A stretch of 32,000 bases of DNA from Geotalea daltonii FRC-32. GTDB taxonomy: Bacteria > Desulfobacterota > Desulfuromonadia > Geobacterales > Geobacteraceae. Position 1 is the first letter of the stretch. Every line of letters begins with the position of its first letter. The notes below the pieces were generated by a model that was not told where the DNA came from, did no database searches, and worked only from the letters and a program-made list of their open reading frames with translations. Position numbers and translations under genes: made by a program. The stretch covers positions 150,001 through 182,000 of the forward strand of contig NC_011979.1 in NCBI RefSeq assembly GCF_000022265.1. The letters are read 5' to 3'. Shown piece by piece: positions 6,381-26,745 of this stretch.

Positions 6381-6413
6381 GTCCAGACCCCTAGACCACC
6401 TTGTTAGATAAAG

Positions 6414-6443
6414 AATTGGCAGGGCTTTGCGACCCTGCCAATT
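6414..6443 (-). terminator. hairpin after the Lpp-like gene
   Basis: AATTGGCAGGG / CCCTGCCAATT gives an 11-bp perfect stem with an 8-nt loop, 16 nt past the stop. On the minus strand it is followed only by CTTTATCT, a short U run. Confidence 0.45.
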
Positions 6444-6459
6444 GCATGATCCGTAGACC

Positions 6460-6780
6460 TTACTTCCGCATTGATTTCTGGAAAATGGCTTCAGCTCTCG
6501 CCGCCTTTTCATCTGCGGCCTTTTCCCGTTCCGCAGCTGCCTTTTCCCTTTCCTCTGCCATCTTTACCGCATTTTCGACGCGGGCTGCGGCAGCATCGGC
6601 CTGCAGCTTGGCTGCATCGGCTGCCGCCTTGGCAGCTTGTGCATCTCGAATGGCCTGATCAGCTTTGGCACCGGTCAGCTGTTCCTGCGCCTGCACTTTC
6701 TCCAGTTCACCGGTTGTTGCACATCCCGTCAGCGCGGTAAAAGCAAGCCCTATTGCGATAACCAAAAGACCTTTCCTCAT
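6460..6780 (-). CDS. Braun-lipoprotein/OprI-like alanine-rich coiled-coil lipoprotein with C-terminal Arg-Lys
   Basis: The ATG at 6778-6780 follows AAGGAGGAG. Signal peptide MRKGLLVIAIGLAFTALTG|C (lipobox LTGC). The mature part is rich in A/K/E/Q (DAQAAKAAADAAKLQADAAAARVENAVKMAEEREKAAAEREKAADEKAARAE) and ends FQKSMRK. Confidence 0.8.
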   Translation of the reverse strand: MRKGLLVIAIGLAFTALTGCATTGELEKVQAQEQLTGAKADQAIRDAQAAKAAADAAKLQADAAAARVENAVKMAEEREKAAAEREKAADEKAARAEAIFQKSMRK

Positions 6781-8759: not shown

Positions 8760-10700
8760 ATGGGAAGGAAAATCCTCGACGATTTTTTGAAAAGGATCGG
8801 AAGCAAACACCGCCTTGAAGATGAGACGTCACAGCAGAGCTTTGCCCTGCTGCAGGTCGTTTTCAATGAGGCTTTCCAGCTGATGGGGCTTCTGAAGCCG
8901 GACGGAACGTTGATCAAGATCAACAAGACTGCGCATCGTTCCATCACGGGTCATGAATCGGAGGTGATCGGCAAGCCCTTCTGGGAAACCCCTTGGTGGG
9001 TCCATTCTTCCATTGAGCAGGAACGTTTGCGCCAGGCCGTCAGGGATGCGGCTCGCGGTGAGTTCGTCCGCTTCGAAACGACCCATATGACCGGCGATGG
9101 TCAAATGATTTTTGTGGATTTTTCCCTGAAACCGGTTAAGGACCAAAAGGGGAACGTGGTGCTGCTCGTTCCCGAGGGGCGGGATATCTCTGAGCGGAGG
9201 CGGGCGGAGCAGGCCTTGCGGGATGTTGCGATGAAGTACCGGATCGTTGCCGACAATACCTATAACTGGGAGTTCTGGCTGGCTCCCGACGGTCGGTTTC
9301 TCTACACATCTCCTTCCTGCCTGCGCATCAGCGGTCATCGTGCCGAGGAATTCATCGCCGATGCCGATTTGTTGATCAGGATTTTACATCCGGATGACCG
9401 GCAAATGTGGCTCAATCATCGTCACGATATTGCAAAAAACAAGGCGTTGAGCGATGTGGAGCTCCGCATGGTACGTCCGGACGGCGATATCCGCTGGGTC
9501 CATCATATCTGTCTCCCGGTTTTCGCCGACAATGAAGAATACCTGGGGGTGCGCGGCAGCTTTTCCGACATTACGAACCGCAGGCTTGCCGAGGAAAAGA
9601 ACGAGCGGCTGGCAGGCATCGTCGAAGCTTCCGACGATGCCGTGATCGGCAAAACGGTGGATGGCATCATCACCAGTTGGAACAAGGGCGCCGCAAAGAT
9701 CTTTGGTTATTCCGAGAGCGAAGTTCGCGGCCAACCGGTTACCATGCTTGTCCCTCCCGAAAATGCAGCCCAGCTTCTCCATGTCCATGACCGGGTCAGA
9801 CAGGGGGAGCATATAGAACATTTCGAGATCGTCAGTAGAAGGAAAGATGGGACCCTGATCAACATGTCCGTTACTTATTCGCCGGTCAGGGATGCCCTGG
9901 GAAAGGTGATAGCCGTATCGACCATCGGCCGGGACATAACCGAACAGAAGAAGGCAGCGGCCGCCATGGTGGAAAACGCCATGATAAACAGGGAGCTGGA
10001 CATAGCGAAACAGATCCAGCAATCCTTCCTCCCCGAGTGCCCGTCATCACTTCCGGGGATGCTCATGACCTGCTGCTGTATTCCTGCAGCGCAGGTGGGG
10101 GGCGATTACTATGATTTTTTTGCCCTTGATGAGAGCATTATCGATGCCGTCATCGCCGATGTCACGGGGCACAGTATCGGATCTTCGCTGTTGATGAGCG
10201 TCACGCGCAGCGTGCTTCACGCCAAGGTGAATCTCAGCCGGTCCCCACGGGACCTTCTCGCAGCGGTAAATGAGTTGCTCTACGATGACCTTTCACGGAC
10301 AGAGTTGCTCATCAGCATGTTCTATGTGCGGATTGACACCCAGAGATCCACCCTGGCCTACGCCAATGCAGGACACAACCATCCCTTTCTCTATCGCTGC
10401 AGACAGCGCGCGTTTATCGATCTGGATGCCGATGGTCTGGTCATGGGGGTTAGAAAGACTGTCTGTTTTGATGAAAAGGAGACGGTGCTGGAGCCGGGGG
10501 ATATTCTGGTTCTTTATACCGATGGCGTCATCGAGGCGGAGAACGCAGAGGGTGAACAATTCGGCACTGATCGGCTCTGCCGCGTTATCGAGAGCCATTG
10601 CGGCCTGCATCCAAAAGAGATTATGGGGGCGGTACTGCAGGAGTCGATGCTTTTCAAGCGTACGGACGACGTCACCATGATCATCTTCAAAATTGTTTAG
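8760..10700 (+). CDS. multi-PAS sensor fused to a PP2C/SpoIIE-type serine phosphatase (RsbU-like)
   Basis: 646-aa ORF with three PAS-like repeats (..GKPFWETPWW.., ..LHPDDRQMW.., ..SWNKGAAKIFGYSESEVRGQPV..). The C-terminus IQQSFLP...VGGDYYDFF...ADVTGHSIGSSLLMS...NAGHNHPFL...LVLYTDGVIEA is a typical SpoIIE domain. Confidence 0.85.
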   Translation: MGRKILDDFLKRIGSKHRLEDETSQQSFALLQVVFNEAFQLMGLLKPDGTLIKINKTAHRSITGHESEVIGKPFWETPWWVHSSIEQERLRQAVRDAARGEFVRFETTHMTGDGQMIFVDFSLKPVKDQKGNVVLLVPEGRDISERRRAEQALRDVAMKYRIVADNTYNWEFWLAPDGRFLYTSPSCLRISGHRAEEFIADADLLIRILHPDDRQMWLNHRHDIAKNKALSDVELRMVRPDGDIRWVHHICLPVFADNEEYLGVRGSFSDITNRRLAEEKNERLAGIVEASDDAVIGKTVDGIITSWNKGAAKIFGYSESEVRGQPVTMLVPPENAAQLLHVHDRVRQGEHIEHFEIVSRRKDGTLINMSVTYSPVRDALGKVIAVSTIGRDITEQKKAAAAMVENAMINRELDIAKQIQQSFLPECPSSLPGMLMTCCCIPAAQVGGDYYDFFALDESIIDAVIADVTGHSIGSSLLMSVTRSVLHAKVNLSRSPRDLLAAVNELLYDDLSRTELLISMFYVRIDTQRSTLAYANAGHNHPFLYRCRQRAFIDLDADGLVMGVRKTVCFDEKETVLEPGDILVLYTDGVIEAENAEGEQFGTDRLCRVIESHCGLHPKEIMGAVLQESMLFKRTDDVTMIIFKIV

Positions 10701-10796: not shown

Positions 10797-11366
10797 TCAG
10801 GGAGAAAACCCGGCCAGCTTCAACTCTGCCCAAGCCAGGCGGGTGCCTGTTTCGGTGAAGAACCAGCTGTCAATCTGCGACGTGATCCATTGCCTGTACG
10901 GACCCTTCTCCTGACGGAACCGTTCCATGTCTATTGCCAGGCCGGTTGCGGTGCAACGGAAAAGCTTGTCGGCATCCTTGACGATCTTGTCGCTGTCTGA
11001 AATCGCCTGAATGCGGGAATCATGACCGTCGATGATATGGAGAATCTCGATGGTCTTTTGCGGATTATAGTCCAGGCGGCTCAAGATACCCCTCGCCAGT
11101 TTTACCCCTTCCACTTCGTGAATCCGTCGCAGATCCGGATCGAAACCGGGGCCGAACGCTTTCAGTTGCAGCTCTTCCGTGAGCTTTATCCACCCCAGAT
11201 CATGACAGAGTATAGCCGGTATGACAACCTCAGGGTCTCCTGGTTCATCCTCAAGCAACCGCCAGGCAAAACCATGGGAAATCTCCACGTGGATGTCGTT
11301 CTTGCGGGTATTCAGATACGGCTTGGCCAGGGCGTATATTTTTTCGTAGATCGGTAATTTTACCAT
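10797..11366 (-). CDS. HD-domain metal-dependent phosphohydrolase
   Basis: The ORF is open to 11396; the ATG at 11364-11366 (MVKLPIYEKIY...) is the likelier start. Motifs: H..ILCHDLGW, HIIDGHDS, VKDADKL. Confidence 0.7.
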   Translation of the reverse strand: MVKLPIYEKIYALAKPYLNTRKNDIHVEISHGFAWRLLEDEPGDPEVVIPAILCHDLGWIKLTEELQLKAFGPGFDPDLRRIHEVEGVKLARGILSRLDYNPQKTIEILHIIDGHDSRIQAISDSDKIVKDADKLFRCTATGLAIDMERFRQEKGPYRQWITSQIDSWFFTETGTRLAWAELKLAGFSP

Positions 11367-11411
11367 GCACTCACCCGTGATCTGTAATTGCGACAACGGT
11401 TGTTGAGGAAA

Positions 11412-11441
11412 GGTTCCCCCTCAAAGGGATTTTTGAGGGGG
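11412..11441 (-). terminator. 12-bp perfect hairpin (C5/G5 repeat family) downstream of the OMP gene
   Basis: TTCCCCCTCAAA-GGGATT-TTTGAGGGGGAA lies about 50 nt past the OMP stop. The U run is weak (CCTTTCCTC). It has the same style as the hairpins at 27699-27787. Confidence 0.4.
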
Positions 11442-11489
11442 AACGTGGTTCAAATCAGGCCTGACGGGTCCTTTCCTGAAGGCAATTGC

Positions 11490-12422
11490 CTAAAAAGCAT
11501 AGGAAATCTTGAACTGGGTCTGGTTGCCGGTGGCGATGTTGCGGGCGCCATACTCCCAGTACTGCTTGAGGGTCATGGTGAATGGCCCCTGTTTCGGCCA
11601 ATACTTGATCCCGACGCCTATCCCTCCGACCCGGCTTTTATCGCTGGTTTTAGAGACACCGTTCACTTCATCTTCGGTGGTCTGCCAGTAGTTGTAACCG
11701 ACCAGGCCGCCAGTCAGGCCGTTCTTCAGGCCATAGCCCAATGCCCAGTCCATGTGGAACTCCTGGCCAGGGTCAGTGCTCGTGTCGCTGTTTCTGGTGT
11801 TGAAGTCGTACATTAGCTTGGCAGAGATGTCGAAGCCTTCCTTCAGGTAAGAGACGGCCAGAACCGGTTCGAAGGTCCAGATGTTCTTGGAGAGGAGGGT
11901 GGTGGCAGGCCGATCCTTGTCATAATTGCCGGTAGGTGCCCACATATCCAGGGCAAAAACCGCGTGGAGCTCCGGACTGAAGTGCCAGCCGAGGACCAGG
12001 GGACTGAAGATGATGTCGCCAATCCCCTTGTCCCTGGAATCAAAATTGAGTGGAGGGATGGCTGCCGAGTCACTCTTGATGTCGGCACTGTAAAAGGGGA
12101 GAAATGCCTGGGCACCCCAACTGGCTCCCAACACTTTATAAGGGCTCACGTAGATGAGGCGTGGTACCTCGGCCACCACGTCGGCCTTGAAATTGGCGGG
12201 CAGGCCGTTCCCCGAATTGTCCCTGAGGCTGCTCTTCTGGGCCAGGATCAGGTAGTTGACCAGATATACACCGGGGGGAGGGAGTGCCCCCACGGCAAAG
12301 TCCTCGACTCCATTGGGGTAGTGCTGTCCACCTCCTGCCCAGCACGGGCCGGCGTACAGCAGAGAAAAAACGGCAAGAAATCTGAGCATGTGGAAAACGT
12401 GTTTATATGCTGATGCCATCAT
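11490..12422 (-). CDS. outer-membrane beta-barrel of the 'MetA-pathway of phenol degradation' transporter family
   Basis: The ATG at 12420-12422 follows AAGAGGA. Signal peptide MMASAYKHVFHMLRFLAVFSLLYAGPCWA. Family-like HYPNGVEDFAVGALPPPGVY block. Alternating beta-strand pattern with a C-terminal ...KISYAF (terminal Phe). Confidence 0.75.
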   Translation of the reverse strand: MMASAYKHVFHMLRFLAVFSLLYAGPCWAGGGQHYPNGVEDFAVGALPPPGVYLVNYLILAQKSSLRDNSGNGLPANFKADVVAEVPRLIYVSPYKVLGASWGAQAFLPFYSADIKSDSAAIPPLNFDSRDKGIGDIIFSPLVLGWHFSPELHAVFALDMWAPTGNYDKDRPATTLLSKNIWTFEPVLAVSYLKEGFDISAKLMYDFNTRNSDTSTDPGQEFHMDWALGYGLKNGLTGGLVGYNYWQTTEDEVNGVSKTSDKSRVGGIGVGIKYWPKQGPFTMTLKQYWEYGARNIATGNQTQFKISYAF

Positions 12423-12482
12423 TGTAGTCCTCTTGATTGATATTGCGCCTGGTTGAATAGTGCATTTGCTCAAATAGCAGTC

Positions 12483-13088
12483 TCACGTGGCGATTCGCAG
12501 TGTTTCCCTCAGTTGTTCCTTTCGGTCATGCCCGTTCCAGCGCGTGAAAAGGTTATGCTCGATGCCCACCTGGTCCAGGGCCTTGCCGATGCTCTGATGG
12601 ATGATGTCCATGATCGACTCGGGCTTGTGGTAGAACGCCGGCATCGGCGGCAGTAGTATTGCCCCGCAGTCGGCAGCGCGCGACATGAGGTCCAGGTGTC
12701 CCTTGTGCAATGGAGTTTCACGCACCATCAGCACCAGCGGTCGCCGCTCCTTGAGGGTAACGTCGGCGGCCCGCACCACCAGGTTATAGGTGAAGGAGTT
12801 GGCGATGGAAGAAAGGGTTTTTACCGTGCAGGGGGCGACGATCATGCCGCTGGTGCGGAACGAACCGCTGGCTACCGAGGCGCCGATGTCGTTGTTGTCA
12901 TAGACCACATCCGCCAGGGACTTGACATCCTCAAGTGTGTACGAGGTTTCGATCTCCAGATTCTTGGCCGCCGCGTCACTGACGATCAGGTGGGTTTCCT
13001 GACCGAGGCTTTTCAGCACGCTCAGCATCTCCACCCCATAGATCACGCCTGTTGCGCCGGTGATTGCCACTACCAATGGAAGGCTCAT
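12483..13088 (-). CDS. ubiX: UbiX-type flavin prenyltransferase (prFMN synthase)
   Basis: The ATG at 13086-13088 follows AAGGAG. Sequence: MSLPLVVAITGATGVIYGVEML...LIVSDAA...GMIVAPCTVKTLSSIANS...RPLVLMVRETPLH...LLPPMPAFYHKP. Confidence 0.9.
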   Translation of the reverse strand: MSLPLVVAITGATGVIYGVEMLSVLKSLGQETHLIVSDAAAKNLEIETSYTLEDVKSLADVVYDNNDIGASVASGSFRTSGMIVAPCTVKTLSSIANSFTYNLVVRAADVTLKERRPLVLMVRETPLHKGHLDLMSRAADCGAILLPPMPAFYHKPESIMDIIHQSIGKALDQVGIEHNLFTRWNGHDRKEQLRETLRIAT

Positions 13089-13142
13089 GATATTGCTCCT
13101 TTTTGCATGAATTACCGGCTGGGTCTGGCAATCCGGCAATTC

Positions 13143-13613
13143 CTATTGCGAGGCCTGAACGGAAGTCTGGCGCCGCGGTGCTTTTCCGAGGGTTCCTGCT
13201 TCCAGGCTGCGGCACAGATGGGCGGCCAGCTGGAAGATTTCGGTGGCGGAGATGATCCCCACCACCACGCCATTTTCCATAACCGGAAACTGGGCTACCC
13301 GCAGTTTCTTGCCGTAATCCAGGCAATGCTCCATGGTGTCGTCCGCATTGACCGTCGCCGGATTGCGGACCATGATGTCCCTGACCCTGAGCCGGTTGAT
13401 GAAAAAGCTGACTTCATCCGGGTTCTGGGTACGCGTCACATAGTGCCCCATGCGCATCATGTTGTGACGGGTCACCAGACCGCGCAACTGTCCATTATCC
13501 ACGACCAGCAACGAATTCAGGTTATTGTCGATAAGTACCCGCTTTGCTTCCGAAGCCAGCATGTCGCTGGGAATCGTCAGGGGGTCGTTTTGCATCCAAT
13601 TGCGCACGATCAT
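13143..13613 (-). CDS. stand-alone CBS-pair protein (PpsC-like stimulatory subunit candidate)
   Basis: The ATG at 13611-13613 follows AAGGAGAG. Two CBS repeats: MIVRNWMQNDPLTIPSDMLASEAKRVLIDNNLNSLLVVDNGQLRGLVT and VRDIMVRNPATVNADDTMEHCLDYGKKLRVAQFPVMENGVVVGIIS. Confidence 0.75.
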   Translation of the reverse strand: MIVRNWMQNDPLTIPSDMLASEAKRVLIDNNLNSLLVVDNGQLRGLVTRHNMMRMGHYVTRTQNPDEVSFFINRLRVRDIMVRNPATVNADDTMEHCLDYGKKLRVAQFPVMENGVVVGIISATEIFQLAAHLCRSLEAGTLGKAPRRQTSVQASQ

Positions 13614-13642
13614 CGCACACTCTCCTTTTAAACAGGTTTTGC

Positions 13643-14899
13643 TCACTGGGCCACTGCTCTTGCCGGAGATCCCTCATACAACCGCACGAACTCATCGACG
13701 GCAGCTCGGGCAAATTCCGAGGTGTACAGGTGCAGATCTACCTCTTTGATCCGGTGGGGTTCGGCGACTTTCTCCTTCAGGCGGGCGACAAAGGCGGCAT
13801 CGGCAGCGGGGTCGTAAATGATCCTCCCCTTGATGTCCTGGGATGACCAGCCCTGCAAGGGAATGAGAAAGGTCCATTCTCCCCGAGCCTGGTTGAGCCG
13901 ATCGGCGATGACATCTGCGGCCTGACGCAGCTCCTCGGCGGTGGTACGCACCTGAACCCTCAGGGAGTCCTGCACGTATTGGGGCCGATCCTTCGTCTTC
14001 TCCAGCATATCCGGCCGGCCGCCGTAGGAGAGGATATCCAGACCGCAGGGGGCCAGCACCATGGGAATACCGGCCTCCACGGCTGCCATCAACCGATCGG
14101 GGCCGGGGTCACGGTTGCCATTGAAGAGGTTTTCGACGATGCCGCCGGTACAGATGTCCAGCACCCCGTGAAAGGCGCCGGCGCGGATCATATCCTCCAT
14201 GGCTTTGTCCCCTTTGCCCTGAGCGTGGCAGACAATAGGGGTGAAGCCGGCCTCATTCAGCATGTCGAGGGCGGCCTGCACTGCCATTTCGCCGAAGCCG
14301 AAGGAGGATATGGCAACGCAGGGTTTGTCGAACTGGATGTCCGTGCCCTGGGTCATCTCCACCATGCCGCAGATGGCGCCGACGGCGTTGGTGATCTGGG
14401 CCTTGAGCAGCGGATTCATTTTGACGATGTCGAGCACCGTGTGGTGCATGGTTATGTCGTGGGTACCAACGTATTTGCCAACGTAGACCGGATGCGCCGC
14501 CATGGGGGATGCCATGAGCTTGGGGATGCCAAAGGGCACACCTTTCATGACACTGGTGCCGACCAGGGAGGACGTTCCGCCGCCAACGCCAAATACCCCC
14601 TGGACTTTTCCTGCTTCAAGCATGTCGCCGACGATGGCGCTGGCGCCCCTGATCTGGTTTTCCATGGCGCGGTCCCGATCGGAGCGATAGCATTCCCTCA
14701 CCGCTTCAATGGTCATGCCGCCGCGTTCGGCGACCTCCTCGCAGGTTATGTCCCCTTGGAACGGCGGGGGTTCTTCCATGCTGAAATCGAGGAAATAGGC
14801 CTGGTGCCCCCGCCCTTCGATGAGATGTTTGACAAAGATAATATCCTCACCCCGAGTATCCAGGTTACAGATGATGACGATACCCTTTTTCTGGGCCAT
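13643..14899 (-). CDS. UPF0261 / Tm-1-like ATP-binding domain protein
   Basis: 418-aa ORF with a GGGAGGA RBS. Blocks: IVIICNLDTRGEDIIFVKHLIEGRGHQAYFLDFS, GVFGVGGGTSSLVGTSVM..FGIPKLMAS, VCHAQGKGDKAMEDMI..GVLDICTGGIVENL, GIPMVLAPCGLD. Confidence 0.7.
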   Translation of the reverse strand: MAQKKGIVIICNLDTRGEDIIFVKHLIEGRGHQAYFLDFSMEEPPPFQGDITCEEVAERGGMTIEAVRECYRSDRDRAMENQIRGASAIVGDMLEAGKVQGVFGVGGGTSSLVGTSVMKGVPFGIPKLMASPMAAHPVYVGKYVGTHDITMHHTVLDIVKMNPLLKAQITNAVGAICGMVEMTQGTDIQFDKPCVAISSFGFGEMAVQAALDMLNEAGFTPIVCHAQGKGDKAMEDMIRAGAFHGVLDICTGGIVENLFNGNRDPGPDRLMAAVEAGIPMVLAPCGLDILSYGGRPDMLEKTKDRPQYVQDSLRVQVRTTAEELRQAADVIADRLNQARGEWTFLIPLQGWSSQDIKGRIIYDPAADAAFVARLKEKVAEPHRIKEVDLHLYTSEFARAAVDEFVRLYEGSPARAVAQ

Positions 14900-14929
14900 G
14901 TGTGTGATCCTCCCTTTCGTGCAGATAGG

Positions 14930-14957
14930 GGCAGGCGGCCGTTGCGAGCCGCCTGCC
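14930..14957 (-). other. GC-rich 10-bp perfect intercistronic hairpin between the UbiD and UPF0261 genes
   Basis: GGCAGGCGGC-CGTTGCGA-GCCGCCTGCC. No U run follows on the coding (minus) strand. Confidence 0.5.
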
Positions 14958-14966
14958 GCTGCATGG

Positions 14967-16469
14967 TCACTTTTTCTTCACTTCGGGCCGGGTGAGGCGC
15001 GGGATCATTTCGGCCACCGGGCTTACCCCGCTGAAGCCATACTCGTTCCAACGATCGGAAACCTTCTGCAGTACCGCCCGATCCATGAAGATCTCGTTCG
15101 GCTTGTTTTTCCACTCGTAGGGGGTGGTGGCATCCATGATGATGCGGCTGACCACATCGCGGGCCTCGATGGGCAGACCGGGATCGAGCGGGGTGGAGCG
15201 GCCGCGGTTGATGACCTGGACCGAGCGCTTCGGATCGAAACGGGTGGCCAGCGCCCACCAGACGCGGTCCATGTCGTCTGCGGCGATGTCATGGTCGACG
15301 ATGATGATTCCCTTGACGCCGTAGTGGCCGGTCGTGCTGCCGTTGATGGCATCGGCCACGTGGTTCGAGTGCCCCGGATACATCTGCTTTACCGAGGCGA
15401 TGACCCAGAAACGGCCGGTGGCCGCAGCCGGGAAGTAGACGCTCTGGATTCCCGGAACCTTCATGGTTTCCAAATCGTGCCACAATGTTGCCGTGCGGTT
15501 GATGGACTGGACCATGTGGGTGTCGTTGATCGGTTTGCCGACCGTGGTTGACCAGAAAATCGGCTTGGTGCGATGGATGATCCGTTTGACGCGGATCACC
15601 GGCTTGGGATAGTCCTTCATCTTGTTGCCCGAGTAATAGCCGGTGTACTCGCCAAACGGCCCTTCCTCCATCAACTCCTCCGGGTCCATCCATCCCTCGA
15701 CAATGATCTCGGCGTTGGCCGGCAGGGTCAGTCCGGTAAGATCGGATTTGAAAACCTCGATAGGACGGCCGCGCAGCGCGCCCCCCACGTCATACTCATC
15801 TGTCTGGGCGCTGACCAGGGTGGAGGAGGCCAGAAACAGTATCGGATCACCCCCCACCACGTAAGCGACGGGCATCTTCTCGCCCCGTTCCTGGTACTTC
15901 TTCATGTGAAAATCGCCGTGCTTGCCGCTGATGATCTGCGAGCCGAGGATATTCTTGCCCAGAATCTGCGAACGATAGGTGCCCAGGTTGGTCCAGCCGG
16001 TATCCGGGTCCTGGGTCACCAGGTAACCGGAGGTACCGAAGAAACGGCCGCCGTCATCGGGATAGAACCAGGGAGCCGGGAAATTTTCCAGATCTACTGC
16101 TTCTTCCGGAATGATGTTTTCCATTACCGGCGGGTTCTTGACGAAGGTGGGCTTGATCATCTGCTTGGTGGTCAGCTCCATCCATTTCCGGGAAAGCTGG
16201 CACATGGTGAGGGACGGGTCCTGCTCCAGGCAGATGGCGATACGTTCGGGGGTGGTGAAGGCACTGGTGAAGACCGGGATAGTGTGCCCTTTGACATTCT
16301 CATAGAGCAATGCCGGACCCTTCTGCTCTTCGTTCACCTTGGATACGTGGGCGAGTTCGAATTTCCAGTCTACTTCGGCCTTGACGCGATGCATGACCCC
16401 TTGGGCTTCCAGGGCTGCGATATAACTGCGGATGTCGTTGATGGGTTTTACCTTTGGATTTGTGCTCAT
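14967..16469 (-). CDS. UbiD-family prFMN-dependent (de)carboxylase, PpcB-like; the only UbiD paralogue in the operon
   Basis: 500-aa ORF with an AGGAGGAAGT RBS. Blocks: FPAPWFYPDDGGRFFGT, MPVAYVVGGDP, DEYDVGGALRGRPIEV, EGPFGEYTGYYS, VKGIIIVDHDI. Confidence 0.9.
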   Translation of the reverse strand: MSTNPKVKPINDIRSYIAALEAQGVMHRVKAEVDWKFELAHVSKVNEEQKGPALLYENVKGHTIPVFTSAFTTPERIAICLEQDPSLTMCQLSRKWMELTTKQMIKPTFVKNPPVMENIIPEEAVDLENFPAPWFYPDDGGRFFGTSGYLVTQDPDTGWTNLGTYRSQILGKNILGSQIISGKHGDFHMKKYQERGEKMPVAYVVGGDPILFLASSTLVSAQTDEYDVGGALRGRPIEVFKSDLTGLTLPANAEIIVEGWMDPEELMEEGPFGEYTGYYSGNKMKDYPKPVIRVKRIIHRTKPIFWSTTVGKPINDTHMVQSINRTATLWHDLETMKVPGIQSVYFPAAATGRFWVIASVKQMYPGHSNHVADAINGSTTGHYGVKGIIIVDHDIAADDMDRVWWALATRFDPKRSVQVINRGRSTPLDPGLPIEARDVVSRIIMDATTPYEWKNKPNEIFMDRAVLQKVSDRWNEYGFSGVSPVAEMIPRLTRPEVKKK

Positions 16470-16523
16470 ACTTCCTCCTGTTCTTGGTTTTGAAAGCTAT
16501 AATGGCTTCCTATAGTGTTTTCT

Positions 16524-17657
16524 TCAGGTCAGGCGTTTTCCTTCGAGCATGCTGGCCAATATGTAATCCATTGCCGAAGCGCCTCCCTTGACGGCACCTG
16601 GCGGCTGCTGTTTCTGGCTCCAGACCGTCTCCGGCCGCGCCTGCAGAATGAAGATGTTGCCGCCGAAGGGAAGGTCCTTGTCCACCGCCCATTCGATGTC
16701 CATGGGGCGGCCATAATGCTTTTCGATCAGCTTGCCCATCCGGGCCAGCTCGGTGATTTCGTCGTCCATCAACGACTGCACCTTCTGCCGCTCGAAGGGC
16801 ACCTCTATGGCGCGGGATACCTGTGTCTTCTGGTCGACGGTGTAGTAGATGTCCTTCTGGGAAATGGTCCGCTCCAAGATGTCCAGGGTGATCTTGTTGA
16901 CGACGAAGTTGTCGGGGGTTACCTCCCCTGAGACCACCGATTCGCCGAAACCGTAATTGGAGTCGATGACGATCACCGAACGGTCGCCGTTGCCCGGATG
17001 AAGCGTGAACATCACCCCTGCGGTAAACGAGTTGGCCATTTTCTGCACGCCGACGCTGATGGCCACCTGCTCGTCCGCGTACCCCTGGTTGATCCGGTAG
17101 GCGATGGCCCGCCCCGTATAGAGGCTGGAGATGCAGCGGCGCATGTTGTGCAGAACCTCATCTGCCCCACGGACCCAGAGATAGGTATCCTGCTGGCCGG
17201 CGAAACTGGCCCCCGGCAGGTCCTCGGCCGTGGCGCTGGAGCGCACAGCAACCGGTACTGCCGGCAGACAGCTGCGTACTGCCAGCTTGCGGTATTTTTC
17301 TGCCACCAGATCTTCAATTTCCGTGGAAAACGGCTGAGCCTCGATCATTTCTCGTATCCCGGCGCTGGCATTCTCCAGTGCATCCATGTCCTGGGAGTCA
17401 ATGCCTTTCAGCCGGGCCTGCACTTCACGGTCGATGCCCGCATCGGCCATAAAGTGCCGATATCCCTCGGTGGTGAGGGCAAAACCTGGAGGCACGCGGA
17501 CTCCCGCATTGATCAACTCGCCGAGGGAAGAGCATTTACCGCCGACGAGCGGCACCGAATCCTTCCTGCATTCCTCCAACCAGCAGACCATGGGCAGGTC
17601 CTTGTTTGCCGTATTCCCAGACTTCCCCATATTTGCTTTCGCCGTGTCAGTCATCAT
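16524..17657 (-). CDS. ppsB: phenylphosphate-synthase beta-like subunit (PEP-synthase/PPDK N-terminal ATP-grasp domain)
   Basis: The ORF is open to 17672; the ATG at 17655-17657 follows AAAGGAG. Blocks: VPLVGGKCSSLGELI, VAVRSSATAEDLPGASFAGQQDTYL, GVMFTLHP, IDSNYGFGESVVSGEVTPD, DIEWAVD. Confidence 0.8.
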   Translation of the reverse strand: MMTDTAKANMGKSGNTANKDLPMVCWLEECRKDSVPLVGGKCSSLGELINAGVRVPPGFALTTEGYRHFMADAGIDREVQARLKGIDSQDMDALENASAGIREMIEAQPFSTEIEDLVAEKYRKLAVRSCLPAVPVAVRSSATAEDLPGASFAGQQDTYLWVRGADEVLHNMRRCISSLYTGRAIAYRINQGYADEQVAISVGVQKMANSFTAGVMFTLHPGNGDRSVIVIDSNYGFGESVVSGEVTPDNFVVNKITLDILERTISQKDIYYTVDQKTQVSRAIEVPFERQKVQSLMDDEITELARMGKLIEKHYGRPMDIEWAVDKDLPFGGNIFILQARPETVWSQKQQPPGAVKGGASAMDYILASMLEGKRLT

Positions 17658-17681
17658 CAAATCTCCTTTCATCGAAATAAC

Positions 17682-19511
17682 TCAGCGATCGATTGTGACG
17701 AGGCCGGTGGAACCATCGACCCGGAGCATCATGCCGGTCCTGATGATCTTCGTCCCGAGCCCGGTGCCGACCACCGCCGGCAAGCCGTATTCACGGCAGA
17801 CTATTGCCGCATGGCTCATGACACCCCCCACATCGGTAACGGCGGCCTTGATTTTGGCAAAGGCAGGCGCCCAGGAAGGCGAAGTGGTGGGTGCAACCAG
17901 GATTTCCCCCTCCTGCAACAGGCGAATATCGTCCGCATTGCGACAGACACGCGCCTTGCCTTCCACAATGCCGGGACTGCCGGCGAATCCTTTCAGGGCG
18001 GTGATGCTGTCCGGATCGGTGGCGTCCTGCACCTCTGACCAATCGGTGATGGACGAGTTGGTTACCCCCCAGAGCACGATGGTGAAAGGCTCCTTGATTA
18101 CTTCAGGGGCAGTGCCGATTGCCGGCGGCGGGCTCCACTGCTGGAATTTCTCCATGACCCCCTTGCGCCAGGCGATTTCCTTCGGCCACACCGCGGTGCC
18201 GCGCGGCTTGACTCCGGTTGCCCAGGCGGTGACCATGTCCCATAAGGCCTGCTTTATTTCGTCGCGGCGCAGATACCAGACATCTTCCACATCCTCGATC
18301 ATGCCGTGTTCTTTCATGATGGCTGCCACTTCCCGCATCTTTTTCCAGAAGACAGTATGGAACCAGTGCTCCACGTAGAACAGATGGTTCTCCACATAGG
18401 GGAAGACGGTCTTGGCCGTGCCGAGCAGGTCATCGAAGGTCTTGCGGTCCTCGTCGGAGGTGATCAGGTCGCGGTACTCGGCGGTGATCCGGTCCCGTTC
18501 GGCACGCACCTTTTCCACCGGCCGTTCGATGTCGATGCCCTGCTTAAGCTGGTTAATGTAGGTGGCGATCCCGGACAGGGGAATATTCAGGTCGTCGTTC
18601 CATGATTTGTCACTGTGCGACCAGCCGGTGCCGGTGGAGACGTGGAACCATGGGTAACGGGCCTCTTCCAGGGCAGCGAGCCATTCCTTTCCCTTCGGGT
18701 TTTTCTTTAGCTCCGCCTTGGCATCCGTCCACTCCGTGCGCGAAGTCAGGATCTGGTCAATCCCCAGTTGGACGGCTTTCTTCGCCAGCTTCTTCAATTC
18801 ATCGTCGGACCGGTACATGAGCACGTCGACACCGGCAATCATCTGGGTGACCCGTTGCAACGGAATGCTCGGAAAGAGCTTTTGCACGAAGTCGAGGAAG
18901 AAGACATAGGCGGCATAGCCCAGGTTGAGGAATTCGAAGTGGTACTGCCAGCACTGGATGCCCAGGTTGATCAGGTCGTCATAGGCCTTGAGCAGGTGAA
19001 AGCCCTTGGATTCGCCGATTCCCTCGGTTACCACGGTGATGTCTTCCAGGTCGGGGAGGCGGGGGATCGGCAATTCTTCGATCTCCTTGATGATCGCCTT
19101 CATCTTTACTTCCCATTTGGCTTCCAGCTCAGCCCAGTTCTTGTAGTAAAAACCGGCACGCTCCATGAAATTCGGGACCCTGCTGCCTACCTCCTCCGGG
19201 TCCATGACCGGCACCGGCGAGATATAGACATAGCCGTTGATGATCCGGTGGTCGACGCCGCGCACCGGTGGTACCTGAAAGATGCGGTTGTTGTACTGGG
19301 ACAAGCCCAGGTACCAGGCCTCATCCCAGATGGTGTCGAAGGGATAGATGGCTTCGGGATAATGGAGTCCATCGTAGAACCAGAATGCCTGTTCTTCGTA
19401 AGCCTTGCGTTCAGGGTCGTCGGTGACGAACTTGTACTGGTACGGATACATCCTTTCCCAACCTTCTGTCCCGGGAATGTCCTTAACCTCGTGTGGCTTT
19501 GGAAACTTCAT
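17682..19511 (-). CDS. ppsA: phenylphosphate-synthase alpha-like subunit (large substrate-binding N-domain + PEP-utilizer mobile His domain)
   Basis: The ORF is open to 19559; the ATG at 19509-19511 follows GGGGGAGA. N-terminus MKFPKPHEVKDIPGTEGWERMYPYQYKF.... C-terminal swivel domain EGEILVAPTTSPSWAPAF..IKAAVTDVGGVMSHAAIVCREYGLPAVVG. Confidence 0.8.
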   Translation of the reverse strand: MKFPKPHEVKDIPGTEGWERMYPYQYKFVTDDPERKAYEEQAFWFYDGLHYPEAIYPFDTIWDEAWYLGLSQYNNRIFQVPPVRGVDHRIINGYVYISPVPVMDPEEVGSRVPNFMERAGFYYKNWAELEAKWEVKMKAIIKEIEELPIPRLPDLEDITVVTEGIGESKGFHLLKAYDDLINLGIQCWQYHFEFLNLGYAAYVFFLDFVQKLFPSIPLQRVTQMIAGVDVLMYRSDDELKKLAKKAVQLGIDQILTSRTEWTDAKAELKKNPKGKEWLAALEEARYPWFHVSTGTGWSHSDKSWNDDLNIPLSGIATYINQLKQGIDIERPVEKVRAERDRITAEYRDLITSDEDRKTFDDLLGTAKTVFPYVENHLFYVEHWFHTVFWKKMREVAAIMKEHGMIEDVEDVWYLRRDEIKQALWDMVTAWATGVKPRGTAVWPKEIAWRKGVMEKFQQWSPPPAIGTAPEVIKEPFTIVLWGVTNSSITDWSEVQDATDPDSITALKGFAGSPGIVEGKARVCRNADDIRLLQEGEILVAPTTSPSWAPAFAKIKAAVTDVGGVMSHAAIVCREYGLPAVVGTGLGTKIIRTGMMLRVDGSTGLVTIDR

Positions 19512-19643
19512 CGCGTGTCTCCCCCCATTGTCGTATAGTTTAGTGGATCGGAACGACAAATTTGATAATCTACAAACCCTGTTTTATAAAATAAGCATTG
19601 TCCTCATGAGCTCTGAATGCTAATCAACGTTTTCAGTTAAAAG

Positions 19644-19659
19644 AGCACCGAATATGCCA
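19644..19659 (-). promoter_or_regulatory. sigma54 (-24/-12) promoter of the pps-UbiD operon
   Basis: The minus strand reads TGGCATATTCGGTGCT with correct GG/GC spacing, about 130 nt upstream of the RBS-supported ppsA ATG. It differs from the MFS promoter at only 2 positions of the 16-nt core (3 when one flanking nt each side is counted). Confidence 0.65.
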
Positions 19660-20056: not shown

Positions 20057-20246
20057 AACTATGTTTTATGAATAAGCAGATATAATCGTTTTGCAGTCAA
20101 GAATTGAATCTGCAGTCGATGGTGATGTCCGGCTGCAATGCTGTTTTTAGGCACCTTTTCCAAATCGTTGCTGGTATGACAATGTTATAAATAATGTTGA
20201 AAAAGAATGGTATCTGCGGCTACCGGCAGATGGAGAGGTGACAATT

Positions 20247-22010
20247 ATGACCAAGGGGTGGCGTACCGGCAAGTCCGACTGCAAGTCAAAGGATGGAGAC
20301 CTGCGGGCACGGGTGCATTTCTGCATGGAATCCGGCCACATATGGCTGCACGAACATCGCATGCTCCTGGTCCATGCCGAGGCTCAGGCAACGCTCCGCC
20401 GGGAGTTGATCGAAACGCTCGGCATGGAGCGCGTACAGGGATTGCTTACCCGCATGGGTTATGCGGCGGGTATGCACGATGCTGAACTTGCCCGGACCCG
20501 ATTCGAGGGCGCAAGCGACATGGAACTTTTCATGACCGGCCCGAAGCTGCATATGCTGGAGGGGGAAGTAAAAGTGACACCGGTCAAGATCGAATTCGAT
20601 CGTACCGCGGGAAGCTTCTATGGCGAATTTCTTTGGGAAAATTCATGGGAAGGCCAATGGCACAAGCGCCATTTCGGCACCAATGGGGAGCCGGTCTGCT
20701 GGAGTCAAATAGGTTATGCTTGCGGCTACTCCACAGCCTTCATGGGACGGCCGATCTTGTACAAGGAAGTTGAGTGTGTCGGCATGGGAAAGAATAATTG
20801 CCGCATTATCGGCAAGCCCATTGATGAATGGGAAGATGCCACCGACTACATGCGTCTTTTCAACCGGGAGTCCATTGCCGAACAGCTGATGGACCTGCAA
20901 ACCCAAGTGGTGCAACTCCGCTCTGCCATAAACAAAAAGGAAAAGCTCCCCTCCGACATCGTCGGCAATTCGAAGATCTTTTGCACCGCATATGAATTGC
21001 TCCAGCAGGCTGCCAAAAGCCAGATCACGGTGCTGCTCCTTGGGGAGACCGGAGTCGGCAAGGAAGTATTCGCTCGCAGTTTGCACAATAGCGGTGCCCG
21101 CAGCAAGGAATCTTTCATTGCCATCAACTGTGCGGCCATCCCCCACGACCTGGTGGAATCGGAACTGTTCGGCGTGGAAAAGGGTGCCTATACCGGCGCC
21201 ATGACTGCCCGCGCCGGCCGCTTCGAACGGGCAAACGGTGGCACCCTGTTTCTCGACGAGATCGGCGATCTGCCCTTTTCGGCGCAAGCCAAACTCTTGC
21301 GCGTGTTGCAGGAAGGGGAAATCGAACGGATAGGCGATCACAAAACCCGCAAGGTCGATGTGAGGCTGGTGGCGGCTACCAACGTGGACCTGAGACAGCT
21401 GGTCAAGGAAGGCAGATTCCGTTCCGATTTGTATTACCGCCTCAATGCTTTCCAGATCAACATTCCGCCGCTCAGGGAGCGTAAGGAGGATATTCCGCTG
21501 CTGGCCAAACGATTTCTGGAGAAATATTCGGCGATCCATGGCAAGAAACTGCGCGGCTTCACCGATAAGGCCAAGCGGGCACTCCTTTCCTATCAATGGC
21601 CGGGAAACATCCGTGAGATGCAGAACATGATCGAACGCGGCGTCATTCTGGCACCAAGCGGCACTCGCATCGAGTTGGAGCAGATGTTTTCGGCAAGCGG
21701 CGAAGAACATGGCCTTGAAATAGGTCTTGATAACAACGGTTCACTTGGGGCCAACGGTTGGGATTACGGCAAAGATCTTTGTGAGGCGGTTTTTAATGGT
21801 GTCATGACACTGGATCAGGTGGAGGCGATGCTCATTGAAACCGCAGTGGCTAAAAGCAGTGGCAACCTTGCTTCAGCTGCCAGAAAACTAGGTTTGACCA
21901 GACGCCAGCTTGCATACAGATTGGGAAATCTCCGCGAAAATGAACCTGCTGAGCCGGCAATCCCTGTTCCCCGCGAACAGCGGGTCAAGCAGTCGGAAAC
22001 AGCCGGCTGA
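20247..22010 (+). CDS. XylR/DmpR-type sigma54-dependent activator, paralogue of 1691-3448
   Basis: The ORF track starts at GTG 20238; the ATG at 20247 lies 8 nt after GGAGAGG. It shares long identical runs with activator 1 ([80 protein letters not shown]). HTH: [20 protein letters not shown]. Confidence 0.9.
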
Positions 22011-22020: not shown

Positions 22021-22046
22021 CCCGGACAAGTAACCGGGCTTGTTTG
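22021..22046 (+). terminator. weak hairpin between activator 2 and the kinase gene (possible attenuator)
   Basis: CCCGG-N8-CCGGG followed by CTTGTTTG. The stem is only 5 bp. Confidence 0.2.
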
Positions 22047-22090
22047 AGGTCGATGGGGCCAATCTCCCGGGAAGACTATTTATAGAACAT

Positions 22091-23902
22091 ATGACTTGCA
22101 TTATTCGCAGACATAAGCTGCCGGTTGCCCTGTTTTTAATCTCGATCGGGGCCGTCGCCGCTCTGCTCCTGATTCAGCATGCGAACCGGGACGTGCGTGC
22201 CGAGGCGCGCGCCCGTTTCATCGAGCAGTACAACCGCCAGCAATCCCTGATGGCCGAACTGGCTTCCCACACCCTGGAAGAGCTGTTCGCCACCTACCAT
22301 CGCAACCTTGACCTGGTGGTCAATCTGTTTGAAGGGAAAGCAGTTACCAGGCACCGCGTGGAAGAGGTCAAGGGGAGTCTGAAAAAAATCTACAGCTCCC
22401 TTGCCAACACTCCGGTCATCGAGATGGTGATCTTCGACAGCAAGGGGACAGCAATCACCATAGAACCCTATGACACGTATACAATAGGGCGCAGTTACGC
22501 CTGGCGCGATTATTATCACTGGGCCAGGGAAATGGGCAGGCCGGGGCAGATGTACCTGTCTCCCTACGCCCGCCTGCAAGGGGGAATGCAGCGCGGGAAC
22601 AAAGCATTGATCGTAGCGGAAGGGATTTATGGCCCGGGCGAAAAATTCCTCGGTGTCGTCATCTGCGCCATAGATTTTGAAGTCCTGGCAAAAAAACATA
22701 TCCTGCCCATCCATATTGGTAAAGAGGGCCACGCGTGGCTGGCTGACATCAGCAACAGGACCATGCTCGTCGGCCCCAGCGGACGCTTGGTGGGTCTCAG
22801 TTTTGAAGAAGCATTCCTCCCGCGCTGGCCAAGGCTGTATCAGCTTCTGCTTTCCATGGAAAATGGCAAGCCGGGAAGCGACTGGTATGACTATCTGGAT
22901 CCCGGCACCTATCAGCATCAGGTACGGAAGATCGGCAGCTATCATCCCATCCGTATCGAGAACCGCCTCTGGGCGCTGGGCATATCCACTCCCGAGCACG
23001 AGGTGGAAGAGCTGCTGTCCACTTTTCTTCATCGTCAGGAACTCTTTGCCAACACACTGTTGGTCACGGTCCTGGGGGTGGCGACTTTGCTTCTCGGGTT
23101 CCTCATCAACTGGAACCGTGTGTTGTCGGCTCAGGTTCAAAACCACACCCGTGCCCTCAGTGAGGCACACACCAGGCTGGAGTCCACTTTTGATGAACTG
23201 TTGGTGGCGAAGAAGGTCGCGGCGGTGGGGCAGCTTGCCCTTGGTCTGTCCCATGAGATCCGCAACCCACTGTCTGCTATTCAGATGAACATGCAGATGA
23301 TCAGGAAAAAAATTGACCTTGCCGGTACCTTGCGGGAAAATTTTGCCATCGTCGACGGGGAGATCCAGCGGCTTAACCGACTGCTCAAGGACGTCATGGA
23401 CTTCGCCCGTCCCAGATCCCTGAACCTGCAAAATACCGAGCTCAAGGAAATTATCAGCAGGCTGATGCAGCTGTTGTCCCAGCGCCTGGAGGAACAGCTG
23501 ATCAGGACAACGGTCCGCACCGAGTCCCCCATTCAACTTGTCTGTGATCCGGAGCAGATCCATCAGGTACTGCTGAACCTGATTCTGAATGCCATGGAAG
23601 CCATGAACGAAACACCAGGAGAAAGGCATCTCACCATCTTCGCCCGCAGTGCAGACGGAATGGCCTTGGTCACGGTAAGTGACACCGGGGGAGGGATCCC
23701 CCAGGGCAAGCTGGAACAGCTTTTCGATCCATTTTATACCACCAGGGCTTCCGGCGGTGGACTGGGCCTTTCCATAGTACAGACCATCGTTCTGCGTCAC
23801 GGCGGGTCGGTGGCGGTGGAGAGCCAGCCGGGGCAGGGTGCCACATTTACCGTGGCCCTTCCCCTGAAAGGACCTGCAGGAACAGGAGATATGAGCCAAT
23901 GA
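22091..23902 (+). CDS. sensor histidine kinase with a periplasmic dCache-like domain
   Basis: The ORF track starts at TTG 22040; the ATG at 22091 gives MTCIIRRHKLPVALFLISIGAVAALLL (TM1). A loop of about 290 aa contains YAWRDYYHWA...FLGVVICAIDFEVL. TM2: LLVTVLGVATLLLGFLINW. HisKA: LSHEIRNPLSAI. HATPase: NLILNAMEA, DTGGGIP, GGGLGLSIV. Confidence 0.85.
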   Translation: MTCIIRRHKLPVALFLISIGAVAALLLIQHANRDVRAEARARFIEQYNRQQSLMAELASHTLEELFATYHRNLDLVVNLFEGKAVTRHRVEEVKGSLKKIYSSLANTPVIEMVIFDSKGTAITIEPYDTYTIGRSYAWRDYYHWAREMGRPGQMYLSPYARLQGGMQRGNKALIVAEGIYGPGEKFLGVVICAIDFEVLAKKHILPIHIGKEGHAWLADISNRTMLVGPSGRLVGLSFEEAFLPRWPRLYQLLLSMENGKPGSDWYDYLDPGTYQHQVRKIGSYHPIRIENRLWALGISTPEHEVEELLSTFLHRQELFANTLLVTVLGVATLLLGFLINWNRVLSAQVQNHTRALSEAHTRLESTFDELLVAKKVAAVGQLALGLSHEIRNPLSAIQMNMQMIRKKIDLAGTLRENFAIVDGEIQRLNRLLKDVMDFARPRSLNLQNTELKEIISRLMQLLSQRLEEQLIRTTVRTESPIQLVCDPEQIHQVLLNLILNAMEAMNETPGERHLTIFARSADGMALVTVSDTGGGIPQGKLEQLFDPFYTTRASGGGLGLSIVQTIVLRHGGSVAVESQPGQGATFTVALPLKGPAGTGDMSQ

Positions 23903-26732: not shown

Positions 26733-26745
26733 GAGGAGAGGAAAA

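Follow-up and report, generated by a model that had tools for sequence, protein, structure and literature searches.

Since 2009 it has been asked how Geobacter species, and later sulfate reducers, carboxylate phenylphosphate with a PpcB homologue only; a further puzzle is how anaerobes short of energy meet the expense in ATP. Both questions bear on an operon of Geotalea daltonii FRC-32 (RefSeq assembly GCF_000022265.1, contig NC_011979.1), which occupies positions 10797–19659 of a 32,000-nucleotide stretch (150,001–182,000 of the forward strand), referred to below as the window. As judged from its genes, this is in all probability a Geobacter-type anaerobic phenol-to-4-hydroxybenzoate operon. 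It also encodes a UPF0261 protein homologous to the phenolic kinase MarK, and the reading that is modestly favoured here is that this protein would act as a phosphotransferase of the pathway, most likely as an ADP-forming phenol kinase feeding a single-UbiD carboxylase. Gene content, orthology, synteny and the conservation of residues and promoter come from the present analysis, the phenol substrate and phenylphosphate intermediate are taken from the G. metallireducens literature, and the role of UPF0261 is what we infer. The identity of the locus is unchanged by this work; what is new is the MarK-family candidate gene travelling with a PpcB-type UbiD, the likely assignment of a CBS protein as PpsC and the wide spread of the cassette.

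An earlier, sequence-only reading of the window had described eight tightly spaced minus-strand genes, and all are present with the domains it named (Pfam and NCBIfam). The features are given below in their order from the promoter, followed by the plus-strand genes to which the text refers.

19644–19659, minus strand: sigma-54 (−24/−12) promoter TGGCATATTCGGTGCT, read from the sequence, 148 nt 5' of the ppsA ATG
17682–19511, minus strand: ppsA, phenylphosphate synthase alpha subunit, real ATG at 19511, 609 amino acids (aa), with a phospho-His swivel domain
16524–17672, minus strand: ppsB, beta subunit with a PPDK_N ATP-binding domain (PF01326, 390 bits), likely start 17657
14967–16469, minus strand: single PpcB-type UbiD-family carboxylase, dependent on prenylated flavin mononucleotide (prFMN) (TIGR02724, NCBIfam)
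13643–14899, minus strand: UPF0261/Tm-1-like ATP-binding protein, MarK-family homologue (PF06792 and PF23189; NF002676, 632 bits)
13143–13613, minus strand: CBS-pair protein of 156 aa with two CBS domains by Pfam, highly likely ppsC homologue
12483–13088, minus strand: ubiX, flavin prenyltransferase making prFMN for UbiD (NF004685, 252 bits)
11490–12473, minus strand: outer-membrane channel (porin) of the Phenol_MetA_deg family (PF13557, 215 bits)
11413–11444, minus strand: perfect 13-bp stem-loop, 3' of the porin stop codon
10797–11396, minus strand: HD-domain hydrolase (PF01966, 37 bits), probable ATG at 11366, behind the hairpin
20238–22010, plus strand: divergent XylR/DmpR-type sigma-54 activator (Pfam XylR_N, V4R, AAA+ and HTH_8)
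1691–4981, plus strand: second XylR-type activator (1691–3448), PNPOx-like flavoprotein (3448–3951) and a fusion of CTP-dependent riboflavin kinase with a HAD-IA phosphatase (3914–4981) (Pfam, NCBIfam)

For PpsA, the CBS protein and UbiX, the ribosome-binding site, homologue alignment and the gene calls on an identical metagenome contig place the start codon inside the longest open reading frame.

The proteins were placed by NCBIfam equivalog scores and pairwise identities. PpsA scores 1392 bits on NF006152, has the length of Gmet_2100 of G. metallireducens and is 76 % identical over 609 aa to PpsA of Azoarcus sp. KH32C, which belongs to a canonical ppsABC-ppcBDAG cluster; it does not group with ordinary phosphoenolpyruvate (PEP) synthases. 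Its swivel domain contains GGVMSHAAIVCREYGLPAVVG, and PF00391 (PEP-utilizers) is matched at residues 549–619 with the GGVMSHAAIVCREYG motif. PpsB is 74 % identical to its KH32C counterpart and is called as a protein of 377 aa in the related locus L001 (L numbers denote the loci compared). The sequence-only reading had recognized only PpsAB-like proteins and had treated the CBS pair as a separate gene, a view that needs correction. The CBS protein is 55 % identical over 138 aa to the one encoded between ppsB and ppcB in KH32C, and its gene is not present in loci without PpsAB; protein 3 of Thauera is reported to have two CBS domains as well. With 156 aa against 222 aa in canonical PpsC, it is a short form in which a C-terminal tail of about 80 aa is missing. 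This homology makes it highly likely that the gene is that of PpsC, which would render the phenylphosphate synthase complete, with a PEP-synthase-like alpha subunit carrying the swivel domain, a beta subunit resembling the N-terminal part of PEP synthase and a small gamma subunit with two CBS domains. The conversion of phenol and ATP to phenylphosphate, AMP and Pi is reported for G. metallireducens extracts. Structure searches found no solved structure of phenylphosphate carboxylase or of PpsA.

The carboxylase is represented by one UbiD protein, which passes the PpcB equivalog model (542 bits on TIGR02724 phenyl_P_beta, cut-off 469) and fails that of PpcA (185 bits on TIGR02723 phenyl_P_alpha, cut-off 565). 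It is 51 % identical to PpcB of KH32C, 28 % to its PpcA and 30 % to its third UbiD, and keeps the NLGTYR and EGPFGE motifs (N161-x4-R166; E-GPFG-E), which we take to be the equivalents of Fdc1 N168/R173/E277/E282, the metal-binding and Glu-Arg-Glu residues. UbiX is 56 % identical to that of KH32C. The PpcB score and the 76 % identity of PpsA bear out the phenol-type activation and carboxylation operon proposed from the sequence, and the claim that no second UbiD, gamma or delta gene is present has held as well. When the whole window was searched by tblastn with the KH32C proteins (E≤10), a PpcA-like second UbiD, PpcG (gamma) and PpcD (delta, a KdsC-like HAD phosphatase) gave only noise; with PpcG (PF09662, about 10 kDa) as query, no match in the window fell below E=1, and 87 related loci gave none at all. 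Within ±10 kb, all of these 87 UPF0261-type loci are free of PpcA, PpcD and PpcG homologues. Among the subunits of the Thauera-type PpcABCD enzyme, beta is present and alpha, gamma and delta are not found.

This composition is that of a cluster in G. metallireducens GS-15, whose gene table (Butler 2007, PMC1924859) lists a sigma-54 regulator (Gmet_2099), PpsA (Gmet_2100, 1830 bp), PpsB (Gmet_2101, 1149 bp), a carboxylyase (Gmet_2102), a 'hypothetical protein' (Gmet_2103, 1257 bp), a CBS protein (Gmet_2104), UbiX (Gmet_2105, 606 bp), butyrate kinase (Gmet_2106) and a signal-peptide protein (Gmet_2107). The best match of Gmet_2104 is T. aromatica CAC12687, an accession between the best matches of Gmet_2100 and Gmet_2102 (PMC1924859). 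Since the order of Gmet_2099–2105 is the same and the lengths are equal for four genes, the window holds the orthologue of the published Geobacter phenol cluster, with a regulator, ppsA-ppsB-ppcB-(hypothetical, 418 aa)-CBS-ubiX and no ppcA, ppcC or ppcD. Both clusters have an outer-membrane protein with a signal peptide, and both have butyrate kinase and phosphate butyryltransferase genes nearby, which in the window lie at 25665–27651 (plus strand) and correspond to Gmet_2106 and Gmet_2098. Unlike in G. metallireducens, a histidine kinase/response regulator pair follows the regulator in the window, the porin comes directly after UbiX and butyrate kinase is on the other side; in locus L017 a butyrate-kinase-like gene directly follows UbiX, so that this association recurs. 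The window is also collinear with Geotalea toluenoxydans JCM 15764, a close relative, at ~94 % nucleotide identity; in the databases searched, the exact UbiD sequence turned up in two metagenome assemblies only. The term 'non-canonical', which the sequence-only reading had used, is apt as far as the lack of ppcA, ppcC and ppcD is concerned, but the architecture is not new, being gene for gene that of Gmet_2099–2105, known since 2007–2009.

The literature agrees with the earlier claim that G. metallireducens carries only a ppcB-like gene: its cluster is described as a phenylphosphate synthase and carboxylase route with a ppcB homologue only, and its complete genome as having neither a ppcA nor a ppcC homologue (PMC1924859; Schleinitz 2009 via PMC6114531). 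A ppsA deletion blocks the pathway, ppsA being required for both phenol and benzene metabolism, and Gmet_2103 has been left 'hypothetical' and is not counted among the phenol proteins; no expression or proteome data for it were found in the literature searched. As the view taken here is limited to 32 kb of the genome, one may consider a canonical carboxylase whose ppcA, ppcC and ppcD genes lie elsewhere and are co-induced, with UPF0261 as a passenger or in a regulatory or cofactor-supply role, for instance in providing dimethylallyl phosphate for UbiX. This explanation could draw on the HAD domain fused to riboflavin kinase and on a ppcD-like HAD gene said to be transcribed nearby in G. metallireducens. 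It is nevertheless highly improbable, given the lack of PpcA, PpcD and PpcG homologues around the 87 loci, the literature on the G. metallireducens genome just cited, and a UPF0261 protein that retains phenol-binding residues and is 79 % conserved across bacterial classes. The HAD of the riboflavin-kinase fusion, the sole HAD in the window, was rejected as the missing PpcD because it is PGP-like, of class IA, and has no PpcD similarity. UPF0261 as a kinase for dimethylallyl phosphate or a cofactor was likewise rejected: the phenol-binding residues are kept, and Rhodocyclales-type loci as well as L017 encode a NUDIX hydrolase in addition to UPF0261, which is therefore no stand-in for the enzyme thought to supply dimethylallyl phosphate.

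The canonical Thauera/Aromatoleum-type cluster is exemplified by plasmid pAZKH of Azoarcus sp. KH32C (L088). There, PNPOx and a sigma-54 regulator are divergent from an operon ordered ppsA, ppsB, CBS, ppcB, ppcD, ppcA, ppcG, third UbiD, UbiX, DUF120 riboflavin kinase, NUDIX, AMP-binding protein and Phenol_MetA_deg porin. The window shares PNPOx, the XylR-type regulator, PpsA, PpsB, PpsC, a PpcB-type UbiD, UbiX, a CTP-type riboflavin kinase, the Phenol_MetA_deg porin and the sigma-54 promoter. It differs in being without PpcD, PpcA, PpcG, the third UbiD and the NUDIX hydrolase, in having UPF0261 after UbiD and in the position of ppsC, moved behind UPF0261. Nearly all accessory genes are thus common to both cluster types, and the real difference is that ppcD-ppcA-ppcG is missing and UPF0261 stands behind UbiD.

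The plus-strand genes at 1691–4981 belong to this shared accessory set. The PNPOx-like protein is 53 % and the riboflavin-kinase domain 40 % identical to the KH32C PNPOx and DUF120 counterparts, the PNPOx-XylR pair adjoins ppsA in most related loci, and the three genes are probably accessory to flavin mononucleotide (FMN) and prFMN supply. The PNPOx-like gene overlaps the stop of the XylR-type regulator in canonical and Geobacter-type clusters alike (window 3448–4981; L088 5674–6138, 17735–18737). The CTP-type riboflavin kinase common to both types is fused to HAD-IA in the window, whereas in Azoarcus a NUDIX hydrolase gene comes after it; speculatively, these two additions could make dimethylallyl phosphate for UbiX, and PNPOx might, again as speculation, serve prFMN handling under anoxia.

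Another strict anaerobe, Desulfatiglans anilini, uses PpsAB-like dikinases and PpcB-like UbiD proteins for aniline, two UbiD subunits carboxylating phenylphosphoamidate without a delta subunit (PMC6114531, PMC7500099). Like the window, it is a Pps/Ppc variant without a gamma subunit; unlike the window, that system has two UbiD paralogues and an alpha/beta/delta composition, with no UPF0261 in the cited texts. The sequence-only reading had allowed for a related substrate such as aniline, cresol or hydroquinone. An operon directed at one of these or at catechol instead of phenol, with aniline taken via a phosphoamidate and with a UPF0261 kinase broadening or redirecting the range, would suit the D. 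anilini precedent, the multi-substrate nature of MarK and a UbiD that is just 51 % identical to canonical PpcB. It is, however, quite improbable. PpsA and PpsB are 74–76 % identical to those of the canonical phenol cluster, whereas in D. anilini the enzymes for aniline and those for phenol have no more than 36–42 % in common (PMC6114531, PMC7500099). In addition, UbiD exceeds the PpcB equivalog cut-off, the regulator has the phenol-sensing XylR_N/V4R architecture of the XylR/DmpR/MobR type, and phenol is the substrate on which the orthologous cluster of G. metallireducens has been investigated.

The gene that distinguishes this cluster is named in databases 'Tm-1-like ATP-binding domain-containing protein', 'UPF0261 family' or 'hypothetical'. 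The sequence-only reading regarded it as an unrelated ATP-binding-fold gene inserted into the operon, but it is probably not unrelated, as it is a homologue of a phenolic kinase. By sequence, its best solved relative is MarK (PDB 9MPY, E=1.9e-48), and the AlphaFold2 model (predicted local distance difference test score, pLDDT, 75) has 9MPY as its top fold match (E=3e-28), followed by tomato Tm-1; identity to MarK is ~29 % when the structures are aligned by Foldseek. MarK (Saro_1862) of Novosphingobium aromaticivorans, described in 2025, is the first member of the UPF0261 family for which a catalytic activity was reported: it is a multi-substrate kinase that uses ATP, with ADP as product, to phosphorylate the phenolic hydroxyl of acetovanillone and similar aromatics before a carboxylase acts (PMC12624787). 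Phenylphosphate is not mentioned in that paper (PMC12624787), and no paper tying UPF0261/Tm-1-like proteins to UbiD or to anaerobic phenol metabolism was found in the literature searched. The equivalents of MarK Asp14 and Thr15, in the nucleotide loop, are invariant in 86 orthologues of the window protein, and the phenolic-oxygen ligands Gly195 and His219 correspond to Gly201 (86 of 86) and His225 (85 of 86). MarK and the window protein thus share the two-domain UPF0261 architecture, the Asp-Thr pair of the nucleotide loop (though not its Lys16), the Gly/His phenolic-oxygen pair and a location beside a carboxylase for a phosphorylated phenolic. They differ in that carboxylase, which is a prFMN-dependent UbiD in the window and the acetophenone-carboxylase-type AcvCDEF for MarK, in the anaerobic setting and in the presumed substrate, phenol being much less acidic than the keto- and aldehyde-substituted phenols of MarK. 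This homology suggests that UPF0261 is probably a phosphotransferase of the pathway.

Another UPF0261 paralogue, with 33 % identity to that of the window, is encoded in L008 (13445–14725) and L011 (from about 2235 onwards) and retains every key residue of MarK (D-T-K, G, T, H, F, V, H). Its gene in L008 stands 3' of the UbiD-UPF0261-UbiX unit and adjoins DUF1302/DUF1329 outer-membrane genes; it may be the truer MarK orthologue, for another aromatic substrate.

The company that UPF0261 keeps was examined in a genome-collection scan with the window protein, which returned 167 relatives, the best 80 of which (74–96 % identical) were kept; synteny was counted only in loci with enough flank. The hosts include Geobacterales, many metagenome-assembled genomes of Burkholderiales and Rhodocyclales, Alphaproteobacteria and Anaeromyxobacter, and the set PpsA-PpsB-UbiD-UPF0261-PpsC-UbiX recurs as a conserved cassette that has spread horizontally and is present in no fewer than 80 species genomes, the majority of them from Betaproteobacteria. 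UbiD is encoded directly 5' of UPF0261 in 69 of 69 loci, those lacking PpsAB included, PpsAB lie 5' in 51 of 54, and the CBS and UbiX genes are each found 3' in 71 of 75. Median identity to the window proteins is 80 % for UbiD, 79 % for UPF0261, 77 % for PpsA, 65.5 % for PpsC and 56 % for PNPOx, and UPF0261 is thus as constrained as the catalytic enzymes. Four loci (L008, L011, L017 and L086) consist of UbiD-UPF0261-UbiX only, behind an XylR-type or LysR regulator and with neither PpsAB nor CBS. Variants in which a CoA ligase gene follows UbiD are ordered UbiX-PNPOx-PpsA-PpsB-UbiD-CoA ligase-UPF0261-CBS (L082/L083) or PpsA-PpsB-UbiD-CoA ligase-UPF0261-HAD (L087). Overall, CBS travels with PpsAB, and UPF0261 with the UbiD-type carboxylase.

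A metagenome scan with PpcA gave the complementary picture: about 35 long classical loci, all of them PpsABC-PpcB-D-A-G-UbiD3-UbiX-DUF120, with UPF0261 in none. Two loci, L140 and L158, carry a distant UPF0261 (39–42 % identity) beside PpcB, PpcA, two copies of PpcD and a gene weakly resembling PpcG. UPF0261 and the alpha, gamma and delta subunits thus exclude one another almost, but not quite, everywhere. One further metagenome locus (L161, 1036–15053) holds four PpcA-like UbiD paralogues (41–46 % identity) and another UbiD, which recalls the multi-subunit benzene/naphthalene carboxylase clusters.

This near-exclusivity could be explained differently, with UPF0261 as a subunit of the carboxylase standing in for PpcD, and perhaps for the alpha/gamma scaffold too, giving a two-protein phenylphosphate carboxylase in which phenylphosphate would be bound at the Gly/His site, the phosphoryl group moved to water, histidine or ADP, and phenolate passed to UbiD. 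UPF0261 indeed occupies the place of ppcD-ppcA-ppcG in the canonical operon, and the scans found UPF0261 in none of about 35 classical PpcA loci and PpcA, PpcD or PpcG in none of the 87 UPF0261-type loci. PpcB, moreover, has diverged more (51 %) than PpsA and PpsB (74–76 %), as would be expected with changed partners, and in 51 of 54 loci UPF0261 is accompanied by PpsABC, beside which a further kinase would seem superfluous. Two loci without UPF0261 carry a metallophosphoesterase instead, and a UPF0261 acting only as a kinase would leave phosphoester cleavage unassigned in the operon. The Geobacter enzyme reportedly lacks 14CO2/4-hydroxybenzoate exchange, which would suggest obligatory coupling to phosphoryl transfer. 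The subunit role is all the same unlikely. The sets are not strictly exclusive, and the distant UPF0261 clades in full alpha-beta-gamma-delta-type clusters (L140, L158) argue for an independent role rather than subunit replacement; a strict replacement of alpha, gamma and delta is weakened by this coexistence. The PpsAB-less UbiD-UPF0261-UbiX operons would have no phenylphosphate source, the one activity known for the family is that of a kinase, and in D. anilini two UbiD subunits alone carboxylate phenylphosphoamidate without delta.

The kinase direction is favoured because it is the sole known family activity, because operons of UbiD-UPF0261-UbiX without PpsAB are expected if UPF0261 itself supplies the phosphorylated substrate, and because distant UPF0261 proteins occur in full alpha-beta-gamma-delta clusters. 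Taken as a separate claim, that UPF0261 works in this direction on phenol has a little short of an even chance of being correct. In the proposed pathway, phenol would enter through the Phenol_MetA_deg porin and be sensed by the divergent XylR/DmpR-type activator, upon which the sigma-54 promoter would fire. PpsA, PpsB and PpsC (the CBS protein) would convert phenol and ATP to phenylphosphate, AMP and Pi, and the single PpcB-type UbiD, with prFMN from UbiX and with FMN supplied by way of PNPOx and the riboflavin-kinase/HAD fusion, both encoded in another part of the window, would carboxylate the phosphorylated phenol in para position without the Thauera alpha, gamma and delta subunits. As a MarK-family phosphotransferase of the carboxylase part, UPF0261 would form phenylphosphate and ADP from phenol and ATP, a cheaper, near-equilibrium route that could be pulled forward by the adjacent UbiD. 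The operon would then combine a cheap ADP-forming kinase with a costly high-affinity AMP-forming dikinase, in parallel to acetate kinase and acetyl-CoA synthetase. The reverse use of UPF0261 as an ATP regenerator (phenylphosphate + ADP → ATP) was set aside as thermodynamically awkward by the author's estimate, as it would remove the driving force of carboxylation.

Several observations weigh against a phenol kinase. The position of MarK Lys16 is Arg in 83 of the 86 orthologues and Lys in three. The stacking His304 and the ketone-binding His348 of MarK are not kept but align to Gln310/Asp311 and Gln/Leu354, in a loop of low model confidence where the outcome is alignment-dependent, and the model as a whole reaches only moderate confidence (pLDDT 75). 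Guaiacol, a weakly acidic phenol, is not phosphorylated by MarK (PMC12624787). A second phenol kinase co-transcribed with PpsABC looks redundant, and a role as a kinase only leaves unexplained the phosphoester cleavage that is the job of the delta subunit in Thauera. Finally, L084 and L085 do without UPF0261 and CBS and have a PF21758 chaperone-like protein and a metallophosphoesterase in place. These two loci (13425–15188) read PpsA-PpsB-UbiD-CoA ligase, with a UbiD 73 % identical to that of the window, and contain PF21758 (LpdD/PAC_bac chaperone-like), UbiX, the metallophosphoesterase and a UbiA prenyltransferase; they represent a third accessory set for a single PpcB-type UbiD.

Expression of the operon is predicted to depend on sigma-54. 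The promoter proposed in the sequence-only reading has the form TGGCAT-N6-TGCT at 19644–19659 (minus strand), the window has three occurrences of the sigma-54 pattern where 0.34 would be expected, and a GG-N10-GC motif lies 51–250 nt 5' of ppsA in 46 of 58 related loci, canonical Azoarcus KH32C among them; by virtue of this conservation the promoter is supported. The divergent activator, presumed to be the phenol sensor of the operon, has the MobR phenol regulator as its top NCBIfam match, with a score under the cut-off, shares 67 % identity with its counterpart in the canonical cluster of KH32C and is syntenic in most related loci. The XylR_N and V4R sensor, AAA+ and HTH_8 domains together with the GG-N10-GC promoter are those of XylR/DmpR-type sigma-54 regulation. 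Immediately after the activator come genes for a dCache histidine kinase and a sigma-54 response regulator (22040–25266, plus strand), an arrangement kept in G. toluenoxydans, L007 and L009, and a triple-PAS SpoIIE-type phosphatase is encoded just past the HD gene (8760–10700, plus strand); both may be additional regulatory layers. Post-transcriptional control is reportedly found in G. metallireducens, and the extra regulators near the operon could relate to it.

At the distal end, the porin, presumed to take up phenol, is 35 % identical to the same-family 'transporter' that ends the KH32C cluster. The predicted hairpin behind it was confirmed as a perfect 13-bp stem, probably the operon end or an RNA stabiliser. 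The HD hydrolase, which the sequence-only reading had counted as an operon member, lies behind this hairpin and has a homologue in only three of the 80 related loci (L002, L009 and L010). It is outside the conserved module.

Other features of the window include a c-di-GMP-I riboswitch (RF01051, 8260–8336, minus strand; 43 bits against a gathering score of 35) directly 5' of an L,D-transpeptidase/SPOR gene (6871–8190, minus strand), which is followed by a second YkuD-family gene (5409–6512). A second sigma-54 motif, TGGCATATGCCGTGCT (1284–1299, minus strand), is aimed leftwards at a multi-pass transporter (MFS-like by eye) leaving the left end of the window. This unit (1–1299) is divergent from the second XylR-type activator at 1691–3448 and is probably another phenolic-responsive transcription unit. 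Towards the right end, a CBS-PAS sigma-54 activator (28208–30283, plus strand) precedes a third sigma-54 motif (30453–30468) and a gene with a molybdopterin (bis-pyranopterin guanine dinucleotide) oxidoreductase-like N-terminus that leaves the window at 32000 and may encode a further enzyme of anaerobic aromatic metabolism.

The distribution of the cassette indicates that the 'non-canonical' form, not the Thauera type, is the widespread one in many groundwater and sediment metagenome Betaproteobacteria, which bears on how ppcB and ppsA marker genes are read at contaminated sites. It may tentatively be proposed that UPF0261, the orthologue of Gmet_2103, is what had been missing from the Geobacter-type system, and that with a single PpcB-type UbiD and UbiX it makes up a minimal two-protein ATP-dependent phenol carboxylase, in which an ADP-forming phenol kinase or a phosphotransfer subunit would be coupled to a prFMN carboxylase; this module would work with or without PpsABC and has spread horizontally. 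Such a compact pair of UbiD and kinase would be an attractive tool for the para-carboxylation of phenols with CO2. If this proposal is true, anaerobic phenol activation in most of the organisms with the module would be cheaper than, and mechanistically unlike, that of the Thauera paradigm.

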